Shown: positions 28,966 through 63,614 of the stretch, one piece after another
How positions within the stretch are numbered: position 1 is the stretch's first letter
Layout of the letters: each line of letters starts with the position of its first letter
Assembly (NCBI GenBank): GCA_964494945.1
Contig: CAZBTX010000004.1
Span: 27,385 to 91,384 of the forward strand
Reading direction: 5' to 3'
DNA length: 64,000 nucleotides
Source: an uncultured Candidatus Saccharibacteria bacterium
GTDB taxonomy: Bacteria; Patescibacteriota; Minisyncoccia; Sungbacterales; JACQCQ01
Position numbers and translations under genes: made by a program
The notes under the pieces: model-generated
What the model was told of the DNA's origin: nothing
Database searches by the model: none
Seen by the model: only the letters and a program-made list of their open reading frames with translations

Positions 28966-30855
28966 ATGTGTGGAATCGTAGGCATCAGAGATCCTCGCGG
29001 CGTCCCCTCGGACGTTCTCCAGGCAATGACGCGCGAGCTCGTGCACCGCGGACCCGACGACGAGGGTTTCCTCTATCTCGATAAGGCGAAAGGCGAGTAT
29101 GTCGACGCGCCGAGTGCGCATGCGACCCTTGGCTTCCGGTTCCGGCGGCTCTCCATCGTTGACCTCGGCGCGACCGGCCACCAGCCGATGCTGACACCGG
29201 ACCGCGGCGCGGCGATCATCTTCAACGGCGAGATTTACAATTACCTCGAGCTCCGCGCGGAATTGGAGGCACGCGGTGTGCACTTCCGGGGACGCAGCGA
29301 CTCCGAAGTGATCCTCCACCTGCTCGCCCTTGAAGGTCTGGCCGCTCTCCCGCGCCTCAACGGGATGTTCGCCCTTGCCTTCCATGACCGTCGCACGGGG
29401 ACGCTAATCCTCGCGCGCGACCACGTCGGTATTAAACCGCTCTACTGGCTCCGCGAAGGCCCCGCGATTGTCTGGGCGAGCGAGCCAAAGGCCTTTCTCC
29501 ACTACCCCTCGTTCCGACCAGATGTCAACCGCGAGCGCCTCCACGAATTTTTCCTTTTCCGCCACGTCATTGGACCCGACACGCTTCTCCGCGGCGTGCA
29601 CTCGGTGGAGCCGGGAGGGTACGTACTTATTCGCGACGGCGAAGCGCGGGAAGTGCGCTGGTACAAGCCGCCACCGCACGAGCCCGAGCCATTAACGGAG
29701 GACGAGGCGGCGGCGCGCGTTGATGCCGCCGTCGGCGAAAGCGTGAAGGCGCAGCTCATGAGCGACGTGAAAGTCGGCTGTCAATTGTCCGGCGGTATTG
29801 ATTCCACCCTCATTTCCTGGTGGGCCGCGCGCCATCACGGCTCGCTTTTTGACTCCTTCTCCGTAAGCTTCGACGACCCGCGTTACGACGAGAGTCCGTT
29901 CATAGATGCCGTCGTCGCTAAGTTAGGGCTCGTCGGTCACACTACGCGCCTTGCCACTGATGAAATGGCGGCCTCGCTCCTCGACGCGGCGTGGCATCAC
30001 GATTTCCCCATCAGCCACCCCAACGCTCTCGGTATTTACGCGCTCGCTCGCGAGGCCCGCCGCCACCACGTAACTGTACTTCTCAGTGGCGAGGGCGCGG
30101 ACGAGGTGTTCGGCGGATACGCGCACTACAACCGCGCCGCGTGGCTCGCGCGCCTCAATGCTCTACCCGGCGGCCTCGAACTCGCCCGGTGCCGCGGCCT
30201 CGCGCGCGCGGGCGACCTCGCTCGGGCACTCGTTCTGCTCTCCGCTATCTACGACCCCAAAGTGGTGCGCGAGGCCTGTCCATGGTTCGACGGCGAGCAG
30301 GCACTCCGCGAGCGTCTTGAGCTTTGGGCGGCGACGCCGGAGACGGACGCCCTCGAGCACCTCATGGCCTATGAGCGGCGCGCGTACATGGAGGAATTAC
30401 TCCACCGCCAGGACCGCATGTCGATGACGCACTCTATCGAGAACCGCGTGCCGTACCTCGATCCGCGCGTCCTCGCACTCGCCCGGCGTCTCCCCACGCG
30501 CCTCAAGGTTGCCGTCGGGTTGTTCCCACGCCGCGGCACAGCACCCCGCGCCACGAAGCCGATACTTAAGCGCCTCGTCGCGAACCGCTTCGGCGATAAT
30601 TTCGCCTACCGCGCGAAGTCCGGCTTCGCGTTACCGCTCCGCGCGATCTTCGTAGCACCCGCGTTCGAGGCGACGTGGCCGGCGATCCGCGACGCTGTCG
30701 TCGCACTCTCTGTCGCGGAGGCGCCCGCACTCGATGCCTTGAAGGAGCAGGCACTCCGCGAGGGCGGCGACGCGGCGAAGCTTCTATGGACATTTACAGC
30801 GCTCGGCGCGTGGTGGCGCGGCATCTCGCGCGTAGGCGCGGTATTACGGACGTGA
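28966..30855 (+). CDS. asnB: Asparagine synthase (glutamine-hydrolysing) family amidotransferase, compositionally foreign (~65-70% GC)
   Basis: It has the MCGIVGI start and the SGGIDS PP-loop. Many spurious ORFs overlap it on both strands, as expected for a high-GC segment. Confidence 0.8.
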   Translation: MCGIVGIRDPRGVPSDVLQAMTRELVHRGPDDEGFLYLDKAKGEYVDAPSAHATLGFRFRRLSIVDLGATGHQPMLTPDRGAAIIFNGEIYNYLELRAELEARGVHFRGRSDSEVILHLLALEGLAALPRLNGMFALAFHDRRTGTLILARDHVGIKPLYWLREGPAIVWASEPKAFLHYPSFRPDVNRERLHEFFLFRHVIGPDTLLRGVHSVEPGGYVLIRDGEAREVRWYKPPPHEPEPLTEDEAAARVDAAVGESVKAQLMSDVKVGCQLSGGIDSTLISWWAARHHGSLFDSFSVSFDDPRYDESPFIDAVVAKLGLVGHTTRLATDEMAASLLDAAWHHDFPISHPNALGIYALAREARRHHVTVLLSGEGADEVFGGYAHYNRAAWLARLNALPGGLELARCRGLARAGDLARALVLLSAIYDPKVVREACPWFDGEQALRERLELWAATPETDALEHLMAYERRAYMEELLHRQDRMSMTHSIENRVPYLDPRVLALARRLPTRLKVAVGLFPRRGTAPRATKPILKRLVANRFGDNFAYRAKSGFALPLRAIFVAPAFEATWPAIRDAVVALSVAEAPALDALKEQALREGGDAAKLLWTFTALGAWWRGISRVGAVLRT

Positions 30856-55728: not shown

Positions 55729-56628
55729 ATGTTTCTGATTAAACATCGCAAACTCACCTATATCATCTCCGGGACGCTGGTTTTGCTTTCAATTTTATTT
55801 GTGTCTTGGTGGGGCTTAAAACTGGGTATTGATTTTACCGGCGGGTCGTTCATGGAGGTTGAATATCAAAATACCCGGCCGCCTATGGACGAAGTTAAGA
55901 TGAATATTGAAAATGCCGGAATCCCGCACGCCGCCGTGCAACCAACGGGGGAGCGCGGATTTTTCATACGCACCGGGCACCTTACCGAAGACCAACATCA
56001 GGTACTTTTAAATGCCATGCGCGGCGATGATAAAAATGAAGTATTGGAAAAACGCTTTGACGCCATCGGCCCCACCATAGGCCAGGAGCTTAAAAGAAAG
56101 TCCGTTTGGGCGATAGGGCTTGTTATACTTTTGATCGTGCTTTACATTGCCTGGGCTTTTCGCAAGGTTTCGGAGCCGGTGGCTTCCTGGAAATACGGAG
56201 TGGCGACAATCATCGCGCTGGTGCATGACGTAATGATACCTGTCGGTATTTTTTCCATACTGGGACATTTTTACGGAGTGGAAGTGGATACTCTTTTTGT
56301 GACGGCCCTGCTTACGATTCTTGGATTTTCCGTGCATGACACCATCGTGGTTTTTGATCGTATTCGCGAGAATTTGAAGAATAGCCGCTCAAAGTCCGAT
56401 TTTGAAATGATAGTGGGTAGTAGCATTTCGCAAACTATCGTGCGTTCCGTAAATACTTCGTTTACGGTGCTTTTGGTGATGCTCGCGATTTACTTTTTTG
56501 GGGGGTCTTCCATCAGTATTTTCGCCTTAACCCTGATTATCGGCATATTTTTTGGGACTTATTCTTCAATTTGTCTTGCATCGCCCATTTTAGTGACCTG
56601 GCAGAAGTGGTCGGGAAAACGAGCATAA
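55729..56628 (+). CDS. secF: Protein translocase subunit SecF
   Basis: It carries GIDFTGGS. Confidence 0.85.
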   Translation: MFLIKHRKLTYIISGTLVLLSILFVSWWGLKLGIDFTGGSFMEVEYQNTRPPMDEVKMNIENAGIPHAAVQPTGERGFFIRTGHLTEDQHQVLLNAMRGDDKNEVLEKRFDAIGPTIGQELKRKSVWAIGLVILLIVLYIAWAFRKVSEPVASWKYGVATIIALVHDVMIPVGIFSILGHFYGVEVDTLFVTALLTILGFSVHDTIVVFDRIRENLKNSRSKSDFEMIVGSSISQTIVRSVNTSFTVLLVMLAIYFFGGSSISIFALTLIIGIFFGTYSSICLASPILVTWQKWSGKRA

Positions 56629-56629
56629 G

Positions 56630-56660
56630 AAAAACCCCGCCTTGCGGGGTTTTTCTTATC
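56630..56660 (+). terminator. Rho-independent terminator AAAACCCCGC-CTTG-CGGGGTTTTT
   Basis: It is a perfect hairpin plus a T-run. Confidence 0.8.
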
Positions 56661-56696
56661 TTTTCAATTCTGAATAGTGTCAGCGCTGAAAAGAGT

Positions 56697-56740
56697 GGGG
56701 GAGCGCGCCCCGATGGTCATCGGGGCGCGCTCCTTTTCGA
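56697..56740. terminator. Second GC hairpin GAGCGCGCCCCGATG-GTC-ATCGGGGCGCGCTC (same CCCCGATG(A/G)(C/T)CATCGGGG core as 33408)
   Basis: It was verified. It is bidirectional in principle. Confidence 0.5.
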
Positions 56741-56748
56741 GCTACTAC

Positions 56749-57048
56749 TTATCCGTAAACAAGAAGACGCTTCGTGCCGTCCTTTTCCACGACGACCGCA
56801 CGAGAGAGCGGACCGGTACTGTCACTTTCCGTGGTTCGCCATTCGCGGACGACGAAGCCCTGCGCCTTGAGTGCCGGGGTCGCGGCCTTCTCTTCCCAGT
56901 CCAGATACCGCCCTCGAGAACCACAGTAGTTCGTCATCGAGACCGGTCCGAGCACTGTCAGTAGGTCTTCTGGCACCATGCCGTACATAAGCCCTCCCTC
57001 GGTGTGAGTTATTGCAAGTGAACCTGTTCTCTGAAAGAACCTAAGCAC
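56749..57048 (-). CDS. Hypothetical protein (GC-rich island)
   Basis: It is an ORF in a high-GC segment and may be a gene fragment. Confidence 0.2.
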   Translation of the reverse strand: MLRFFQRTGSLAITHTEGGLMYGMVPEDLLTVLGPVSMTNYCGSRGRYLDWEEKAATPALKAQGFVVREWRTTESDSTGPLSRAVVVEKDGTKRLLVYG

Positions 57049-57057
57049 AAATCATTG

Positions 57058-57137
57058 CGCTCTTCTGAATCTCAAAAAATTTTCTGAAACTCGGAAGAAC
57101 GGAGCGGCGGGACGAAGACTTCTCGCCCGCGCCGCTC
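57058..57137. repeat. 80-bp direct repeat copy 1 (identical to 58151-58230), immediately 3' of minus-strand gene
   Basis: The sequence CGCTCTTCTGAATCTCAAAAAATTTTCTGAAACTCGGAAGAACGGAGCGGCGGGACGAAGACTTCTCGCCCGCGCCGCTC is identical at both sites. Confidence 0.9.
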
Positions 57138-57149
57138 TTCGAAACTTAC

Positions 57150-57557
57150 TTATTGCCGAAGAACTTCTGCGAAGAACTTGGCTCCGGCAGTGCCGATCTC
57201 CGCAGATACAAACTGGTATCCCGGCTCCACGCGGAACGCGAAGCGTGGTACTTCAGGGAGGTGATCTGCGCATACGGTTGCCGAAACCGGACTCCACCCG
57301 GCCGATGACCCGCCATGCAACCCTCGACCTTTCAGGAATCGGCAGTAGATCGCGGATTCCTTGGGCCAGCGTGCGGGACGGATTATAACATCAAGATCAT
57401 CGTCCGCACCGAGTCTCCCAACGAACTCATAGTCGAAGCCACTCGCTACATCCCATCCCCTCACCCGAAGGGCAAAGAGAATGTTCAGTCGCGCGAGAAG
57501 CTCAGCAACGGCGAAGTCGAGAGCTCCGAGCTTCCGCTCTGTGGCCTTCTGGCGCAT
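57150..57557 (-). CDS. Hypothetical protein (GC-rich island), 6 nt downstream of REC-like gene
   Basis: The ORF on this strand is protein-like. The antisense ORF 57315-58004 was rejected. Confidence 0.35.
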   Translation of the reverse strand: MRQKATERKLGALDFAVAELLARLNILFALRVRGWDVASGFDYEFVGRLGADDDLDVIIRPARWPKESAIYCRFLKGRGLHGGSSAGWSPVSATVCADHLPEVPRFAFRVEPGYQFVSAEIGTAGAKFFAEVLRQ

Positions 57558-57563
57558 GGCGGG

Positions 57564-58067
57564 CTACTTCCACCACTTCGCACTGCGCGTGAGGCAGATG
57601 TCGTACCGCTGATGCTCTGCGCACCGGCCCTTCTCGGTGAGCCACTTCAGCAGCTTGAACGCCAAGTCCCATCGCTTCTCGGGTGCGTCCTTGAAGAGGT
57701 CGCGCGACGCGTCGATGATACCCGGCCAGCGAAGAGCGAGCGACAGCTCGTGGATCCACTGGTACTTCGGTCCGTGGTGATACCCCGCGGTGTTCAGAGT
57801 ACATGGGATCCCGCGCTCCCAGCAGATCATCATGACACTGACACCGATCGGCTCGGGCGTGGTGTACGTGTCGCCCTGATACTTGCTGTACGGAGCGAAC
57901 GGGAAGTAGATGTCGGAGATTACGCCATCGACCATGCCAGGCATGAGATGCTCGATTGCCCCGTGCATGGTACTGACGTAGACCACTTCGATCCCTTCCT
58001 GTGACGCGAAAAACTGCTTTGCGTCGGCCACGTGCTTGGCATCATCCTCGATCACAAGGATCTTCAT
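57564..58067 (-). CDS. Stand-alone CheY-like receiver (REC)-fold domain protein
   Basis: It has the MKILVIEDD N-terminus, an Asp at the ISDIYFP position, and a later Thr and Lys. An AGGAGG sequence lies 8 nt upstream. Confidence 0.4.
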   Translation of the reverse strand: MKILVIEDDAKHVADAKQFFASQEGIEVVYVSTMHGAIEHLMPGMVDGVISDIYFPFAPYSKYQGDTYTTPEPIGVSVMMICWERGIPCTLNTAGYHHGPKYQWIHELSLALRWPGIIDASRDLFKDAPEKRWDLAFKLLKWLTEKGRCAEHQRYDICLTRSAKWWK

Positions 58068-58150
58068 TTCCGAACCTCCTGAGGCATCGCGCCTCAGTAA
58101 GCGTTAAGGAACGCCTGCCGCCCTCACGGCAGCATAGAGCAGGCCAATCC

Positions 58151-58230
58151 CGCTCTTCTGAATCTCAAAAAATTTTCTGAAACTCGGAAGAACGGAGCGG
58201 CGGGACGAAGACTTCTCGCCCGCGCCGCTC
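58151..58230. repeat. 80-bp direct repeat copy 2
   Basis: It is identical to 57058-57137. Confidence 0.9.
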
Positions 58231-58237
58231 GCTTTGC

Positions 58238-58706
58238 TCATACGCCGAGGCTTTCGCTCTGAAGGAGAACCACAACTGCCTTGCCGTCTTCGATGGCGAA
58301 GCGGATGCGGTCACCCGGCCCCGTCCACTTGCGGATCTTCCGGCCATCCTCCGTCTGTACGTCCTCCGGCAGGTACCAGGCGCGCCCCTCGGTGTCTTCC
58401 ACGATGATTCCATAGGGAAGCGCATAGGAGCCGCCGTCCATGAGTCGCCTCGCGACAGTGAACTCCGTGCCGACATGCTCGGCGCGGATTCCTCGGCTGA
58501 TGCCGTTCACGGCCCGAGCCTTGATGGTGCTCACTTCAGCCCAGTACGGCCCCCACTTCTCTCGCCACTCGGCGATGGCACGATGGCCTTCGGCGACACG
58601 CGCCTCCGCTTCCTGTCGCTTGCGCTCTCTCGTCTCTCGCCGCTTCGTGGGGGAGAGGAGCCAGTGAAGGCCGTCCGCGATGAGCATGAACATATCTTGG
58701 ATCATT
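58238..58706 (-). CDS. Hypothetical protein (GC-rich island); alternative start at 58786
   Basis: It is an ORF with a basic, helical N-terminal half and a beta-rich C-terminal half. Confidence 0.3.
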
Positions 58707-58965
58707 GCGCACCTCCATGTTTTTTGGGTGAATATCACCCTGCAGGCTTGTGAAATAACACAAGCACCAAATAGAACTTCTGTCAAGTTTTTGGGCAGGG
58801 GGTAATCTAGGTCTGTTAGCGCATATCATAGATAACTTCTAGGCCTTGAAGTCATTAAGCTGCCCTCCAAAATCCCCTTATTGACAAGATTGTCAAACCG
58901 GTGCTACTCTATACGCGCACTGATTTTCGGCCTATTTTTAGCCAAAACACACAGTAGCGCGAAAA

Positions 58966-60015
58966 ATGCTGCAACCCATTAAAACATCAATCAAACCGCG
59001 CGAAGTTTCCCAAAAATTGCTCGCCAACGTGGAGAATAAACGCGTGCGCGAAGTACTGGAAAAACGCTTCGGTTTGAAAAACAGCGCCAAAAAGACGCTG
59101 GATGCCATCGGAAAAGAATACGGAATTACAAGAGAACGCGTTCGCCAAATTGAAGCGGACGGTCTTCGCGTGCTGGCTTCTCCGGCAATATATGGCACGG
59201 CCGATTTGGTTTTCAAAGCGTTAAAAGAACATTTGGACGAGCACGGAGGTGTCGCCGCTGAAGACCATTTGCTGGGTAGCATAGCCGATGAAAAAGACCA
59301 TCCTCATGTTTCATTTTTGCTGACAGTCGGCAAACCCTTCCAAAAAAAGCAGGAAACCGATGGTTTGCGTTCTGCGTGGTTTACCAATAAGAACGCGCAT
59401 GATGCCGTGGGGAAAATCTTGGACGGAGTTCATCGCGAGCTGGACTCAAAGAAAAATCCCGTAGCCAAGGAAGTACTTTTGGATATGATAGCAACTCACG
59501 CGGAAAAAATTCTGGGCGCGCGTCCCAGGGAGCACGTGGCCCGCAATTTTCTGGGTCTCGCCAATCAAATTGGGGAAAATCCCTACCGCGAATACGGGCT
59601 GGTTTCCTGGTCAACCATTCGCCCCAAGGGCGTTCGCGACAAGGCCTACTTGGTTCTGCAAAAAGCCGGAAAGCCTATGCACTTTAGGGAAGTGGCGAGT
59701 GCCATCAACGGCATGAATTGGATGAAAAAAGCCGCGCATCCGCAAACGGTGCATAACGAGCTTATCAAAGCTGGAGACCGCTTTGTGCTGGTGGGTCGCG
59801 GACTTTACGCGCTTCGCGAATGGGGTTATACGCCGGGGACAGTCGCGGATGTCATGAAAGGAGTTCTTACAAGTGCCGCCAAACCCATGGCTAAAGATGA
59901 ACTGGTACAGAAAGTCATGGAGAAGCGATTTGTCAAAGAGAATACCATTCTTTTGAACCTGCAAAATAAGTCCCTTTTCAAAAAGGGGGCTGACGGTAAG
60001 TATTTTTTGGCGTGA
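58966..60015 (+). CDS. Sigma-70 region-4-like HTH domain protein with ~270-aa C-terminal domain
   Basis: It carries KTLDAIGKEYGITRERVRQIEADGLRVL. A TTGACA motif lies at 58882. Confidence 0.5.
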   Translation: MLQPIKTSIKPREVSQKLLANVENKRVREVLEKRFGLKNSAKKTLDAIGKEYGITRERVRQIEADGLRVLASPAIYGTADLVFKALKEHLDEHGGVAAEDHLLGSIADEKDHPHVSFLLTVGKPFQKKQETDGLRSAWFTNKNAHDAVGKILDGVHRELDSKKNPVAKEVLLDMIATHAEKILGARPREHVARNFLGLANQIGENPYREYGLVSWSTIRPKGVRDKAYLVLQKAGKPMHFREVASAINGMNWMKKAAHPQTVHNELIKAGDRFVLVGRGLYALREWGYTPGTVADVMKGVLTSAAKPMAKDELVQKVMEKRFVKENTILLNLQNKSLFKKGADGKYFLA

Positions 60016-60016
60016 A

Positions 60017-60130
60017 ATAGCGCATAGCGTGTAGGGGATAGCGTATGGCGTATAGCGTCCAGATAAATTGGGTGGCCGCGAACATGTTGCCGTCCTCTGT
60101 ACGCTATCCGCTATTCGCTATACGCTATTA
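60017..60130. promoter_or_regulatory. Composite inverted repeat built from ATAGCGT heptamers between sigma-like gene and downstream membrane-protein gene
   Basis: The left arm at 60025-60058 carries four ATAGCGT-like units. The right arm at 60101-60128 carries four ACGCTAT-like units. Confidence 0.6.
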
Positions 60131-60153
60131 TAAGAAGGAAGACCTTCTATTGT

Positions 60154-61596
60154 ATGGATTTTTTAATTGAAAGTTTCGGAACTATTCTACAGCTGGCCAT
60201 AGAGCTTTGGTGGATTATTTTGCCGTTGATCGTAGTGCCGCTGGCGGCACACACTTGGAAATATTATTTAGTTTCAAAAAAATTAAAAGAGACGGAGTGG
60301 TTGCTTTTAGAAATTCAAATCCCGCGGGAAATAATGAAATCCCCCGAGGCCATGGAGCGGGTGTTTGCCGGACTCCACGGCCCCTACGACCCGCCGCAAT
60401 ATTTTAAAGATAATTATTTGAAGATCAAAGTCCGCCTTTGGTACAATTTTGAGATTGTGGGGCAGGGCGGCGATATGCGTTTTTTCATGCGTCTGCCCAA
60501 GGGCTGGCGCAAAGCGGCGGAAGCGCAAATGCACGCCCAGTATCCCGGCGTCACCATCCGCGAGGCCGAGGACTACGCCAAATCCCTTCCCGAAAATATG
60601 CCCAATGATGACTATGATCTTTGGGGAATGGAGATGCAGTTCGCCAAAGACAATCCTTATCCCATTTTAACTTACAAGGACTTCACGACGCTTACCGAGG
60701 CGAAATTGGAGGAAGTGAAGGTTGACCCCTTGTCGGCTTTTGCCGAGGCGTTGGCCAAACTGCGCCCCGGCGAGCAAATTTGGTTCCAGATCATGGCGCG
60801 TCCCTGCGGTTTACCCGGTAAGGGGCCCAATGATGATTGGCAGAAAAAGGGCGAGGAGCTGGTAAATAAACTGGCAGGGCGGGAAAAACCCAAAGCCAAA
60901 CCCTGGTGGCATTGGCTCGCTGATCTCTTTGCGGCCCTTGTGGAAGAAATCCCGGAGCACCTATCGGAGCTCGCCAAACCCGGCACTTCTTCGCCGGAGC
61001 AGGGACTGGGACGACTGAACGTGGCAGCTAAAAAGGACGAAACAAAAAAGGACCCGTCAAAGCTGATGCATATCACGCAAGGCGAGAAAGACGTGATTTC
61101 CGCCATTGAGAGCAAGATTTCCAAGATGGGATTTGAATGCGTGGTGCGCCTGATTTATGTGGCGCGAAGGGACGTCATGGACCTGGGCGCCATCGGCTCG
61201 CTTTTTGGCATTATCAAACAATTCAATACCCAGCATTTGAACGCTTTTCGCCCCAACGGCGCGGCGTTAACCAGGCCCCAGGATTATCTTTGGGGATTTT
61301 TCCAGTCAAAACGATATCTGACGCGTATAAAACGCGGGCTTCTGCGCGCCTATAGAGCGAGAAACCTTTTTTACGATTCAAAAGATTTCTTGCCCGGGCA
61401 AACTTTTCCGGAGACCGCGAGTGTTATTGAACGTATTTTCCCGAACAGTATGACGATGTTGCGTTCCAAACCCGTCGTTTTAAATATTGAAGAAATGGCG
61501 ACTTTGTTCCATTTCCCGGGTGCTACCGTGTCTTCGCCCACTATGCCGAAAATTGAGGCCAAGCAGGCCGAGCCGCCGGTAAACTTACCCCTCTGA
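60154..61596 (+). CDS. Membrane-anchored hypothetical protein (N-terminal TM pair, large soluble domain)
   Basis: It is an ORF with TM helices. Confidence 0.35.
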   Translation: MDFLIESFGTILQLAIELWWIILPLIVVPLAAHTWKYYLVSKKLKETEWLLLEIQIPREIMKSPEAMERVFAGLHGPYDPPQYFKDNYLKIKVRLWYNFEIVGQGGDMRFFMRLPKGWRKAAEAQMHAQYPGVTIREAEDYAKSLPENMPNDDYDLWGMEMQFAKDNPYPILTYKDFTTLTEAKLEEVKVDPLSAFAEALAKLRPGEQIWFQIMARPCGLPGKGPNDDWQKKGEELVNKLAGREKPKAKPWWHWLADLFAALVEEIPEHLSELAKPGTSSPEQGLGRLNVAAKKDETKKDPSKLMHITQGEKDVISAIESKISKMGFECVVRLIYVARRDVMDLGAIGSLFGIIKQFNTQHLNAFRPNGAALTRPQDYLWGFFQSKRYLTRIKRGLLRAYRARNLFYDSKDFLPGQTFPETASVIERIFPNSMTMLRSKPVVLNIEEMATLFHFPGATVSSPTMPKIEAKQAEPPVNLPL

Positions 61597-61658
61597 TATG
61601 AATAAAAAACAAGAAGCAAAAAACAAAACACATAAAACGGATTCTTGTTTCTTGTTTC

Positions 61659-63614
61659 TTGTTTCTTATTTTAACTTTCATGATTGACGACATCACCTAT
61701 TTCGCTGAAACCAATTACCGGGGCGATAAAAAACGCTTCGGCATTAAGCACGCGGACCGCCGCCGCCACATGTACATCATCGGTAAAACCGGCACCGGCA
61801 AAACCACGCTCTTGGATAATATGACGGTACAAGACATCCAGCGTGGGAACGGGGTGGCCGTGATTGACCCGCACGGCGAATATGCCGAGCGCATGCTCTC
61901 ATTCGTGCCCAAGGAGCGCATTCAGGATGTGGTCTATTTCAATCCGGCGGACCTGGAATATCCCTTTGGATTCAATATGCTGGAGCAGACCAAAATTGAA
62001 CTGCGTCACTTTGTGGCCTCGGGTCTTATGAGCGTTTTCAAAAAACTCTGGATAGACGCTTGGTCGGCCAGAATGGAATATTTTCTTTCTAATTCCATCC
62101 TTTCGCATCTGGAAGTTGAAGGGTCAACTCTCATGGGCGTGCACCGGATGTTCGGCGATAAGGCCTATAGAAAAACCATCGTATCTCAATTACGGGACCC
62201 GGTGATCAAGGCCTTCTGGGAGAATGAATTTGACAAACTGCCGGAGCAGTTCATGCGCGAGGCCATTGCTGCCATTCAAAATAAAGTCGGCCAGTTCATT
62301 GCCAATCCCTTAATTAGAAATATCACAGGTCAGCCGCATTCCACTTTCAATTTGCGCGATATCATGGATAAGAAAAAGATCCTGATCGTCAACCTCGCTA
62401 AAGGCAAGATAGGCGAGGAGAACTCCAAGCTTTTGGGAGCTATGCTGGTGACGCGAATTTATTTGGCGGCCATGTCCAGAGTGGATCTGCCCGAAGATGA
62501 GCGTGAAGATTTTTACGTCTATGTGGACGAGTTCCAAAATTTTGCCACGGAGGCCTTTGCTTCTATTCTTTCCGAGGCGCGCAAGTACCGCCTGAATCTT
62601 ACGCTGGCTAATCAATACATGGCGCAATTAGTGGACGACAAAACAAAGTCAGCGGTCCTGCGAGACGCCATTATCGGGAATGTGGGTACCATGATAAGTT
62701 TTCGCATTGGCGGGGAAGACGCAGAGGTGCTGGAGAAGGAGTTCATGCCGGAGTTCCTGATCCAGGATTTCGTTTCGCTGGGATTCGCCAATATTTATTT
62801 GAAACTCATGATTGATAACGTGGCCTCGCGCCCCTTTTCCGCCGTAACGCTCCCGCCCATTCCCGCGCCGCACGAAAATTACGCTAAAGAAATTATTGAG
62901 CACTCGCGGCTTACCTACGGCAAGCCCGTAGTCGAAGTGGACACGGCTATTCGCGTCTGGGGCGGATTTGTTCTCAGAACTTCTCCGGCGTCCCCCGGCG
63001 CGGAAGCTGCCGGAGTAAGTCAAGCGCCTGCCCGAGAACCGGAAAGAAAAAGAAGTGAAACGGAAAAGCCGCCAAGAAAAAAAGAAGAAAAAGGACAATA
63101 TCCGGCGGTTTGTGCCGTGGATGGAAAGCCGATAATGTTGCCATTCAAACCAGATAATCGCAGGCCTGTTTATTGCCAGGAGCATTTGAGCCAGATCCAG
63201 CGCATGCCTGCGCATGCAGGCGGCGGCCAAACCAACGCACCCAAACCAATACCGAGAGAAAACAGAAATTCCATGCCGCAAGCTGCTTCGTTTCCATCTC
63301 AATCCGCCCCGGCTATTCGCGCCGACCCCAACGCCAGACACATTTCACTTAATGACCTTAAGCCAAGAAATGAGGCATCACCTAATCGAAATCAAACGCC
63401 AAGAGAAAACAATACTGGGACAAGTCATGATTGGTCGCCTAGCCGTCGTTCGGAAGCCCCCAAAAAGTCAGTTGACCTTGGCGAACTCCGCAAAGTTTTG
63501 CAGGAGTCTCTACAAAAGCCCGTTGCCGAACCCCCCGAAGCAGAATCGGTTCCAAAATCTTCGGATGTACCACAAGCCGGCGCTCTAAAACCCGGAGAAA
63601 CAGTCAATTTTTAG
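61659..63614 (+). CDS. FtsK/HerA-superfamily ATPase, TraD/TraG/VirD4-like (type IV coupling-protein-like) with C-terminal low-complexity tail
   Basis: It has the Walker A motif GKTGTGKTT, AVIDPHGEY, and the Walker B motif YVYVDEFQNF. Confidence 0.55.
   Translation: MFLILTFMIDDITYFAETNYRGDKKRFGIKHADRRRHMYIIGKTGTGKTTLLDNMTVQDIQRGNGVAVIDPHGEYAERMLSFVPKERIQDVVYFNPADLEYPFGFNMLEQTKIELRHFVASGLMSVFKKLWIDAWSARMEYFLSNSILSHLEVEGSTLMGVHRMFGDKAYRKTIVSQLRDPVIKAFWENEFDKLPEQFMREAIAAIQNKVGQFIANPLIRNITGQPHSTFNLRDIMDKKKILIVNLAKGKIGEENSKLLGAMLVTRIYLAAMSRVDLPEDEREDFYVYVDEFQNFATEAFASILSEARKYRLNLTLANQYMAQLVDDKTKSAVLRDAIIGNVGTMISFRIGGEDAEVLEKEFMPEFLIQDFVSLGFANIYLKLMIDNVASRPFSAVTLPPIPAPHENYAKEIIEHSRLTYGKPVVEVDTAIRVWGGFVLRTSPASPGAEAAGVSQAPAREPERKRSETEKPPRKKEEKGQYPAVCAVDGKPIMLPFKPDNRRPVYCQEHLSQIQRMPAHAGGGQTNAPKPIPRENRNSMPQAASFPSQSAPAIRADPNARHISLNDLKPRNEASPNRNQTPRENNTGTSHDWSPSRRSEAPKKSVDLGELRKVLQESLQKPVAEPPEAESVPKSSDVPQAGALKPGETVNF

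Follow-up and report, generated by a model that had tools for sequence, protein, structure and literature searches.

Gene content of the island

We analysed a stretch of 64,000 nucleotides, hereafter the window, from a contig of Candidatus Sungbacteria, a member of the candidate phyla radiation (CPR; GenBank CAZBTX010000004.1, positions 27,385 to 91,384 of the forward strand). It contains an island of odd composition, about 2.1 kb long, in which small genes are separated by two identical 80-bp direct repeats, designated R. A preliminary description of the same DNA had located this island between the secF terminator and a sigma-like gene, and both flanks were recovered: SecF matched PF02355 (its protein has been deposited as Candidatus Sungbacteria, MBI2055030.1), and the sigma-like protein combines Sigma70_r4 with HARE-HTH. 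The left limit, on the host side, is the intrinsic terminator of secF (56625-56659, plus strand), a perfect bidirectional 16-bp hairpin with a T tract behind it. The composition of the island is atypical, as had been proposed, but the GC content of about 63% ascribed to the island was too high. Positions 56661-58800 had 58.4% GC, compared with 48.7% in the rest of the window, and 0.62-0.65 was reached only in some 400-nt sub-windows. The GC content at third codon positions (GC3) was 0.60-0.82 in the four island genes and 0.53 ± 0.06 in 39 other open reading frames (ORFs) of the window. The island was probably acquired horizontally by the Candidatus Sungbacteria genome.

The island is a four-gene co-directional accessory operon, read on the minus strand in the order P155, R, leader, REC167-P135, R, leader, P79 and terminator-like hairpin, the numbers giving protein lengths in amino acids. 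The region upstream of the operon (58706-58804) contains TTGACA at 58786-58781, a weak -10 element and a Shine-Dalgarno sequence (GGAGG, 58716-58712), and the right edge of the island probably falls within it. The P155 gene (58238-58705) is followed by repeat copy R2 (58151-58230), by an 83-nt structured leader (58068-58150), by the gene of REC167 (57564-58067), which has a stand-alone receiver fold, and by the gene of its partner, P135 (57150-57557). After repeat copy R1 (57058-57137) come a 69-nt leader (56989-57057), in which a Shine-Dalgarno sequence (GGGAGGG) can be read at 56998-56992, and the P79 gene (56749-56988), encoding a conserved small protein. The four minus-strand ORFs previously listed are present, and two of them probably start further downstream. 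The 99-aa ORF starts with GTG, but the likelier start is the ATG at 56988, behind GGGAGGG, which gives 79 aa (gene callers used both forms). Similarly, the 182-aa ORF, listed with 160-180 aa, starts with TTG, and the ATG at 58705, behind GGAGG, is the likelier start; the resulting length of 155 aa is also that of the Logan call.

Beyond P79, the region 56668-56733 (minus strand) comprises a GC hairpin (56733-56700) similar to the first of the two hairpins of R (SL1, see below), a U-rich stretch, and a degenerate AU-rich hairpin similar to the second one (SL2). The degenerate hairpin ends with ATTCAGAA (56675-56668), which adjoins host sequence, and its fold has a free energy of -13.0 kcal/mol. 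A perfect 16-bp inverted repeat (I3) is also found in this region. These hairpins would correspond to a terminator or to the end of the array.

The repeat consists of two tandem hairpins

The two copies of R are byte-identical, and they are separated by 1093 nt from start to start; none of 100 shuffles gave a match. They follow the stop codons of P155 and P135 by 7 and 12 nt, respectively. All this agrees with the preliminary description, which had further regarded R as a 3' element of genes carrying an imperfect GC hairpin and an iterated motif, TTCTGAAnCTC. The GC hairpin was found (SL1), but the iterated motif is in reality formed by the two arms of a second hairpin (SL2), and R is not a 3' element plus a motif. 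On the sense (minus) strand, it consists instead of two adjacent hairpins that together use all 80 nt. R begins at the first paired base of SL1 and stops at the last paired base of SL2, and the flanking sequences diverge at once on both sides.

SL1, which occupies 57137-57102 in R1 and 58230-58195 in R2, is GC-rich (GAGCGGCG.GGGCGAG-loop-CUUCGUCCCGCCGCUC). SL2 (57101-57058 and 58194-58151) has 44 nt and can be written CGUUCUUC-C-GAGUUUCAGAA-AAUU-UUUUGAGAUUC-A-GAAGAGCG. Its stem consists of 8 bp, a 1x1 mismatch and 11 bp, and its base has the form GTTCTTCCGA-N21-TTCAGAAGAGCG. The folding energy of SL2 in the window was -21.3 kcal/mol on the sense strand and -10.0 kcal/mol on the antisense strand. 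Three G.U pairs connect the arms, and because the arms pair through G.U, the hairpin forms on the sense strand only. Larger stretches containing R folded better than shuffled sequences, with z-scores of -5.6 (a 201-nt stretch with R2 and the REC leader) and -4.3.

No T tract was present after either hairpin, SL1 being followed by CGUUCUUCC and SL2 by CAAU or GGAU, and an intrinsic-terminator scan called neither of them. It made a weak terminator-like call at 57062-57043, over the boundary between R1 and the leader. A consensus scan of 56500-59000 found no sigma-70 promoter consensus on either strand.

The leader between R2 and the REC167 gene forms hairpins at 58133-58115 and 58097-58081, the latter abutting a Shine-Dalgarno sequence (AGGAGG, 58080-58075). 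It showed 75% identity to positions 609-727 of Logan contig L022, which encodes a homologue of P135, and compensatory changes were seen between the two leaders. A hairpin of the form GAGGCG-N-GATGCCTC, abutting a Shine-Dalgarno sequence GGAGG, was noticed in the window (58097-58075, minus strand), in L022 (675-697) and in L009 (4280-4302). In these three unrelated CPR loci it precedes the first gene of small-gene operons; its 5' arm is Shine-Dalgarno-like and its 3' arm anti-Shine-Dalgarno-like. We also observed, in the fold of the 201-nt stretch, an alternative pairing (58151-58110, minus strand) between the 3' basal arm of R2's SL2 (AGAGCGGG) and the sequence CCUGCUCU in the REC leader. The centroid structure retains the full SL2 of R2, and R1 has no such alternative partner. 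This alternative pairing may act as a conformational switch particular to the REC unit.

The second hairpin recurs in other CPR loci

A covariance model built from five distinct SL2 copies found only R1 (66.6 bits) and R2 (55.2 bits) in the window, as did a search allowing three mismatches. As far as 64 kb show, the element is therefore not a generic, genome-wide terminator, in line with the earlier assumption. In other genomes, the SL2 loci from Rifle groundwater and that of L009 were reached through homology of the island proteins, not through the motif. In L023, fetched as the locus of a P155 homologue, the SL2 base was found both upstream and downstream of this gene, with N21 between the arms and 22 of 22 arm positions identical to those of the window. 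L009, from a metagenome-assembled genome (MAG) of Saccharibacteria, encodes a REC167 homologue (52% identity) and gave 31.8 bits with the covariance model (E = 5e-7 to 1e-5); its SL2 is a 68-nt hairpin, identical at 21 of the 22 basal positions and preceded by a GC hairpin. A longer variant hairpin (533-607) precedes the homologous leader in L022. Every SL2 has a different GC hairpin just before it and is followed by a leader of about 70-136 nt and a small gene. The genes associated with it number at least seven, encoding P155, REC167 with P135, P79, a 172-aa DUF5680-like protein, and proteins of 103, 202 and 60 aa.

The JGI metagenome collection yielded eight stretches in a scan with the exact pattern. 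Six were true, all with N21 and the same hairpin, and at least three of these come from the same Rifle JGI samples as the contigs with P155 homologues. The exact pattern had no match in IMG/VR. A viral origin was also considered and dismissed: hits of relaxed patterns of both hairpin families (see below) in IMG/VR were about as numerous as estimated by chance, and the covariance model rejected all 25 relaxed-pattern SL2 loci.

Comparison of the five distinct copies showed that 94.7% of the cells were paired, compared with at most 53% in slid controls. In eight of the 19 base pairs of SL2, all of them apical, both partners differed when the window type was compared with the Rifle type. In all five of these hairpins, which we call family A, the sense strand folded better, the energies (sense/antisense, kcal/mol) being -21.3/-10.0, -17.2/-8.5, -18.5/-11.9, -23.0/-14.3 and -16.1/-14.3. 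The long variant of L022 was an exception to this bias, and in the degenerate terminal hairpin of the island the two strands were about equal.

A second family (B), in which a GC hairpin is followed by a long AU-rich hairpin (TCCCACCAAA..TTTGGTGGGA), was found at two loci with REC167 homologues, L010 (Zambryskibacteria; 708-739, 1014-1054 and 1518-1561) and L038 (1923-1975). Most of these hairpins stand after a short GC hairpin, between small co-directional genes. Three of them were likewise much more stable on the sense strand, through G.U pairs. In L022, two 55-nt direct repeats (1675-1729 and 2359-2413), 78% identical, flank two small genes of the opposite strand whose products, judged by eye, resemble HicA and HicB.

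Searches for known classes of elements were negative. Rfam gave no match in the window at gathering thresholds, and an E-value scan of the island returned only generic hairpin matches far below threshold. Tandem interspersed guide RNA (TIGR) arrays were dismissed, the copies of R being about 1.1 kb apart and flanking protein-coding genes. Neither the fetched parts of L035 and L036 nor the 34 Pfam-annotated ORFs of the window included an integrase or transposase; for the window the absence is not absolute, four ORFs having no family. The annotated ORFs largely correspond to a polysaccharide-synthesis cluster, SecA, SecDF, peptidases and a TraG/VirD4-like ATPase. Literature searches on CPR integrons and cassette hairpins gave nothing of relevance and no description of the element family.

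Gene units are gained and lost at the hairpin

The Rifle contigs include three arrangements of related units. In V1, the order is promoter-SL2-P155 homologue-SL1-SL2-172-aa gene; in V2, 103-aa gene-SL1'-SL2-172-aa gene; and in V3, 103-aa gene-SL1'-SL2-P155 homologue-SL1-SL2-172-aa gene. Compared with V2, V3 thus has one more unit, which lies exactly between two identical copies of SL2. The geometry of the window is that of V3, with REC167-P135 between two identical copies of R. V1 and V2 occupy one chromosomal site, as indicated by a common upstream gene, terminator and promoter-like region, while the contigs of V3 are too short to show the upstream context. The latter bear MEGAHIT k141 names and their repeats measure 48 nt; this length is spanned at k = 141, and the V3 architecture is therefore no short-k-mer artefact. 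In V1, a promoter-like sequence (TTGCTT-N15-GATAAT) stands 8 nt upstream of SL2, which would therefore lie at the 5' end of the primary transcript. The preliminary description had likened the island to a cassette array. This likeness now has comparative support, since SL2 recurs in other CPR genomes where the gene units differ, and it can be considered partly substantiated.

Proteins encoded by the island

The receiver fold that had been suspected in the 167-aa protein was supported by its AlphaFold2 (AF2) model (pLDDT 86.3, pTM 0.83), for which the top Foldseek hits in the PDB were all receiver domains. They included DesR, MicA, PhoB and others, with E-values down to 4e-5 and, among the best-ranked receiver chains, TM-scores of 0.65-0.74 normalised to target length. 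The model shows the (beta-alpha)5 fold of CheY-like receivers (PF00072). Five residues, E7, D8, D52, T93 and K131, were invariant in 37 family members and are situated at the ends of model strands 1, 3, 4 and 5, where CheY-like receivers have their acidic pair, phospho-acceptor Asp, Thr/Ser and Lys. This arrangement is consistent with a phospho-acceptor pocket, the roles being assigned by position only. REC167 differs from these receivers by an insertion between strand 3 and helix 3, by further, family-specific invariant residues (H12, H97-H98, W104 and W133), and by a PF00072 score of 20.5 bits, below the gathering threshold of 30.2, with only residues 3-56 matched. Seven of the 37 family members matched PF00072 at E<0.01. 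The family comprises receiver-like proteins of about 145 aa, is confined to MAGs of CPR bacteria and DPANN archaea, and was not found in IMG/VR. No histidine kinase is encoded near REC167.

A tail of about 20 residues at the C-terminus of REC167 (148-167; window 57564-57630, minus strand; pLDDT <50 from residue 156) is missing in most aligned homologues. It ends 6 nt before the start codon of P135, with no Shine-Dalgarno sequence between the two, which suggests that translational coupling was created by read-through into a former spacer. In DPANN MAGs (L013, L016 and L017), the gene of the REC167 homologue is divergent from a gene that, judged by eye from N-terminal sequences, resembles the TrmB family with a helix-turn-helix; the GC content of the REC167 homologue is only slightly above the locus average, and the hairpin module is not present there. 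On Logan contig L038, the REC167 homologue has a TrmB gene (Pfam) about 2 kb upstream on its own strand; this contig also contains a family-B hairpin.

The 135-aa gene does start 6 nt after the stop codon of the 167-aa gene, as initially noted. P135 had a single homologue among 5.8 billion clusters, P0046, with 70% identity. In L022, the gene of this homologue sits directly behind a stand-alone receiver-like gene, itself preceded by the homologous structured leader. The latter receiver has no detectable sequence similarity to REC167; it weakly matched cREC_REC (E = 0.002, below the cut-off). A P135-family gene is therefore placed behind dissimilar receivers in the two loci, which indicates that the pairing has been conserved while the receiver was exchanged. 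P135 had no match in Pfam, PHROG, PADLOC, NCBIfam or PDB.

The single homologue cluster of P155, P0048 (61% identity), comes from groundwater contigs of Rifle, on which the gene is likewise bounded by SL2; sequence searches of Pfam, PHROGs, PADLOC, NCBIfam and PDB gave nothing usable. P79 represents a conserved family of small proteins with the motif WE..VA.P.L..GY....W.T.E.DSFGPL.R...V.KDG....YG; 95 cluster representatives were retrieved at E<=1e-3, and the family was also seen on 22 IMG/VR contigs. Its AF2 model is a small alpha/beta protein (pLDDT 90). We found no relative of P79 in Pfam, PHROG or PDB, where the best structural match had E = 0.12, and did not find it in INPHARED. PADLOC, PHROGs and NCBIfam gave no useful match for any of the four proteins, REC167 included. 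The view that none of the four proteins can be assigned to a family accordingly holds for P135 and P155 but not for REC167, with its CPR/DPANN family, or for P79, with its family of about 95 representatives. The defence role that had been suggested is unsupported, as PADLOC gave nothing below E = 0.05; its best match was PDC-M60B (E = 0.059), with the N-terminus of REC167 only.

Contigs ending at the repeat and at the island edges

Two Logan contigs, L001 and L002, contain the REC167-P135 unit as 1123 nt (1093 + 30) with a 30-nt terminal overlap. They are 100% identical to the window and start or end exactly at an edge of R, while the flank contigs L004, L005 and L006 extend exactly 30 nt into R before they end. 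We rejected these 'circular' contigs as evidence of a free circle because of their ends at the R edges. Whenever a unit lies between repeats of 31 bp or more and one branch is lost, a graph with k = 31 gives such contigs, and they are therefore uninformative, being compatible alike with a single integrated copy, a tandem array or a free circle.

In the same population, contigs of other assemblies end or begin at both edges of the island: NCBI contig JACOYZ010000015.1 breaks off at 56643, within the secF terminator, and Logan contig L007 (SRR12113424) begins at 58805, at the probable right edge. An island-free variant or a fall in coverage may be the reason. SecF, the sigma-like protein and the island proteins were all singletons at 90% identity, and exact look-ups of SecF and the sigma-like protein yielded no contig in which they are joined without the island.

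Genes adjoining the island

Next to the island, 58966-63614 (plus strand) encodes the sigma-like protein (Sigma70_r4 + HARE-HTH, 349 aa), a 480-aa ORF without a family and a 651-aa coupling ATPase of the TraG/VirD4/TrwB type, with a HerA-like domain and a zinc finger. These genes may form a DNA-transfer module adjoining the variable locus. A second compositional outlier, at 28966-30855 (plus strand), is a glutamine-dependent asparagine-synthase-like gene (GC 0.65, GC3 0.77), which lies within a glycosyltransferase/polysaccharide-synthesis cluster (about 1-40 kb) of about 49% GC.

Discussion

The explanation that we favour, tentatively and a little short of even confidence, is that R is a transcribed boundary module between genes, which would serve in RNA processing or stability and would also offer portable homology for the shuffling of cassettes. 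SL1 would close the upstream cistron, and SL2, with its conserved base and variable apex, would follow directly. The polycistronic RNA would be cut at or next to the SL1/SL2 junction, unless the hairpins merely block exonucleases. Every gene unit would thereby end in a 3' hairpin of its own (SL1), which would shield the upstream message, and begin with a 5' hairpin of its own (SL2), the start of the downstream one. A sequence-specific factor would read the conserved base of SL2. At the DNA level, recombination between two modules would delete a unit, in principle as a circle, and the reverse event would insert one. In the window, the REC167-P135 unit would have been inserted between P155 and P79, leaving two identical copies of R.

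A transcribed module is favoured by the coincidence of the repeat edges with the hairpin edges, by the G.U-dependent stability of the sense strand, by the position of SL1 after stop codons, and by the position of SL2 at the probable 5' end of the V1 transcript. The base of SL2 is identical at 22 of 22 or 21 of 22 positions in loci whose linked proteins share 52-61% identity, which implies a sequence-specific reader. Since all units share the module, homologous exchange would account for the addition and removal of units as well as for the pair of identical copies in the window.

Several points weigh against this proposal. That R is transcribed and processed is something that we infer, and a single-stranded DNA substrate, such as an attC site or a hairpin of the IS200/IS605 type, would be compatible with the G.T wobble and the strand bias as well. 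The conserved base of SL2 needs a reader, but a recombinase would fit as well as an RNase. Family A is so far represented by only six distinct sequences, four of them Rifle variants and the others from the window and L009. The eight compensatory pairs all trace to one split between lineages, and the basal arms of L031 and L032, two of the Rifle variants, had been picked out by means of that very arm pattern. The module is missing at the REC167 homologues of DPANN archaea and in L039-L044. The deletion that distinguishes V1 from V3 has its left end away from any SL2, and therefore not every rearrangement uses the element. Finally, the term 'foreign' applied to the island describes its composition only, because the searched collections hold no close relative.

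An unlikely, though serious, competitor is that R, or its SL2 half, is a single-stranded-DNA recombination site of an undescribed site-specific system. REC167-P135 would then be a true mobile cassette, excising as a 1093-nt circle and being inserted by a recombinase encoded elsewhere. SL2 is constructed much like the attC sites of integrons, as an imperfect one-strand palindrome with an invariant base, a conserved internal mismatch and a variable, co-varying apex. Its structure is strand-specific, and the 22 basal positions are all identical despite the divergence of the linked proteins. The units are co-oriented, with no promoter detected before the downstream ones; the identical copies flanking REC167-P135 have exactly the edges of the element; and units are gained or lost at the element in the Rifle variants, V2 and V3 differing in cassette content. 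A partial 3'-arm motif (ATTCAGAA) is present at the junction of island and host (56668-56675), and the 3'-arm motif of L022 is duplicated past the hairpin. Even the lack of a nearby integrase is known from clusters of attC sites lacking integron-integrases (CALINs).

R differs from integrons in several respects, however. A regular-expression search of both strands found neither of the attC cores (R'', RYYYAAC; R', GTTRRRY), as the preliminary description had stated, and no IntI was found, nor any integrase or transposase in the sequences mentioned above. attC sites measure 57-141 nt, and SL2, with 44 nt, is below this length and always fused to a second, cassette-specific hairpin. One of the units holds two genes, structured leaders of 70-136 nt follow the element, and the array is flanked by secF and the sigma-like gene rather than by intI, attI and Pc. 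G.U-rich stems are more typical of RNA, and the circular Logan contigs do not help to decide. The two copies in the window share the same SL1, whereas each Rifle unit has its own. As SL1 is common in the window but unit-specific in Rifle, homologous exchange fits better than a fixed crossover point. A broader form of the same idea, which strikes us as similarly doubtful, is that SL1+SL2 and family B are both recombination sites of an undescribed CPR gene-cassette system, in which a recombinase or nuclease encoded elsewhere would insert circles of about 1 kb into arrays.

In its working, R resembles known repeat-bounded cassette systems, but it fails the defining tests of each of them. In T4-type phages, 'mobile regulatory cassettes' known as promoter early stem-loops (PeSLs) are short composite repeats with a stem-loop, placed between small unknown genes of hyper-variable regions. 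They delimit the insertions, deletions and replacements by which close relatives differ, and recombination of neighbouring copies can loop out a gene as a mini-circle (Arbiol et al. 2010, PMC2839356; Comeau et al. 2014, PMC4122927). PeSLs are defined by a strong sigma-70 early promoter and a terminator stem-loop (PMC2839356, PMC4122927). R similarly consists of stable stem-loops between small genes of unknown function in a variable region, and the likeness extends to the window and the Rifle variants. It differs in having neither a promoter consensus nor a T tract, in having two hairpins with a conserved base only in the second, and in its location in a CPR chromosome rather than a phage, no copy having been found in IMG/VR.

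Hairpins between cistrons that partition mRNA stability are known from repetitive extragenic palindromic (REP) sequences and bacterial interspersed mosaic elements (BIMEs), for example in malEFG; these elements are high-copy and dispersed. The early genes of phage T7 have RNase III processing sites between cistrons, which are not bipartite and do not mark the gain and loss of cassettes. By analogy, R, which also lies between cistrons of one operon, has a stem of about 20 bp with an internal mismatch that would be of the size of an RNase III substrate, and a hairpin would stay at the 3' end of the upstream message. R differs from BIMEs (REPINs) by its two copies in 64 kb, and no RAYT-type transposase was found in the window.

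We regard it as quite improbable that SL2 is a double-stranded DNA operator, with the inverted repeat GYTCTTCYGA as half-sites 33 bp apart, R marking co-regulated genes and its copies resulting from local duplication. As an inverted repeat, the half-sites agree at 8 of 10 positions, their sequence is maintained across lineages, and the element stands upstream of many different small genes. However, the apex co-varies so as to keep its pairing, which an operator does not need, and the differences between arms are G.U-compatible on one strand. Most copies have no adjacent promoter consensus, the element is always fused to an upstream GC hairpin, and a spacing of 33 bp between operator half-sites is unusual.

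Just as little credit is given to the possibility that the window is partly an assembly artefact, the chromosome being P155-R-P79 and REC167-P135-R a separate circular or tandem molecule, or belonging to another strain, threaded through the repeat. The unit was indeed seen as closed Logan contigs of 1093 + 30 nt (k = 31) in SRR12113385 and SRR12113430, the flanks come from other runs (383, 384, 420 and 424) in contigs that stop exactly at the R edges, and a further MAG from this population has a contig break at the island's left edge. Against this, reads are typically longer than 80 bp, as is the final k of IDBA, MEGAHIT or SPAdes, and the contig of about 100 kb, which crosses the repeat twice, is therefore probably read-supported. 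The ends of L001 and L002 on R edges imply that chromosomal branches exist in those runs too, and a unit between two identical elements is also found in the MEGAHIT k141 contigs from Rifle.

The idea that R is a generic host transcription terminator or REP-like extragenic palindrome, unrelated to the genes, would agree with its intergenic position 7-12 nt past stop codons, its GC-rich hairpin and the weak call at 57062-57043, but appears highly implausible given that there are two copies in 64 kb, that host terminators such as that of secF have a canonical hairpin and T tract, which SL1 and SL2 lack, that copies in other genomes track homologous cargo genes, and that the JGI metagenomes contain about six true matches and IMG/VR none.

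To our knowledge, CPR bacteria have tiny genomes in which few mobile elements have been recognised, and the exchange of their accessory genes is poorly understood; we know of almost no two-component systems in CPR or DPANN organisms. The receiver-like protein family restricted to CPR and DPANN is a new lead, and the twofold occurrence of a P135-family gene right behind receiver-like genes that are unrelated to each other offers another one, concerning signalling. The hairpin module, which delimits small units in Sungbacteria, Saccharibacteria and unclassified CPR-like contigs from Rifle, would provide a searchable marker of a flexible gene pool, and the covariance model can be used on complete genomes. 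Our work suggests either an insulation of cassettes at the RNA level, the boundary module that we favour, or a new recombination site. If the latter were true, these ultra-small symbiotic bacteria would possess a counterpart to integrons, equivalent in function but based on other sites and another enzyme.

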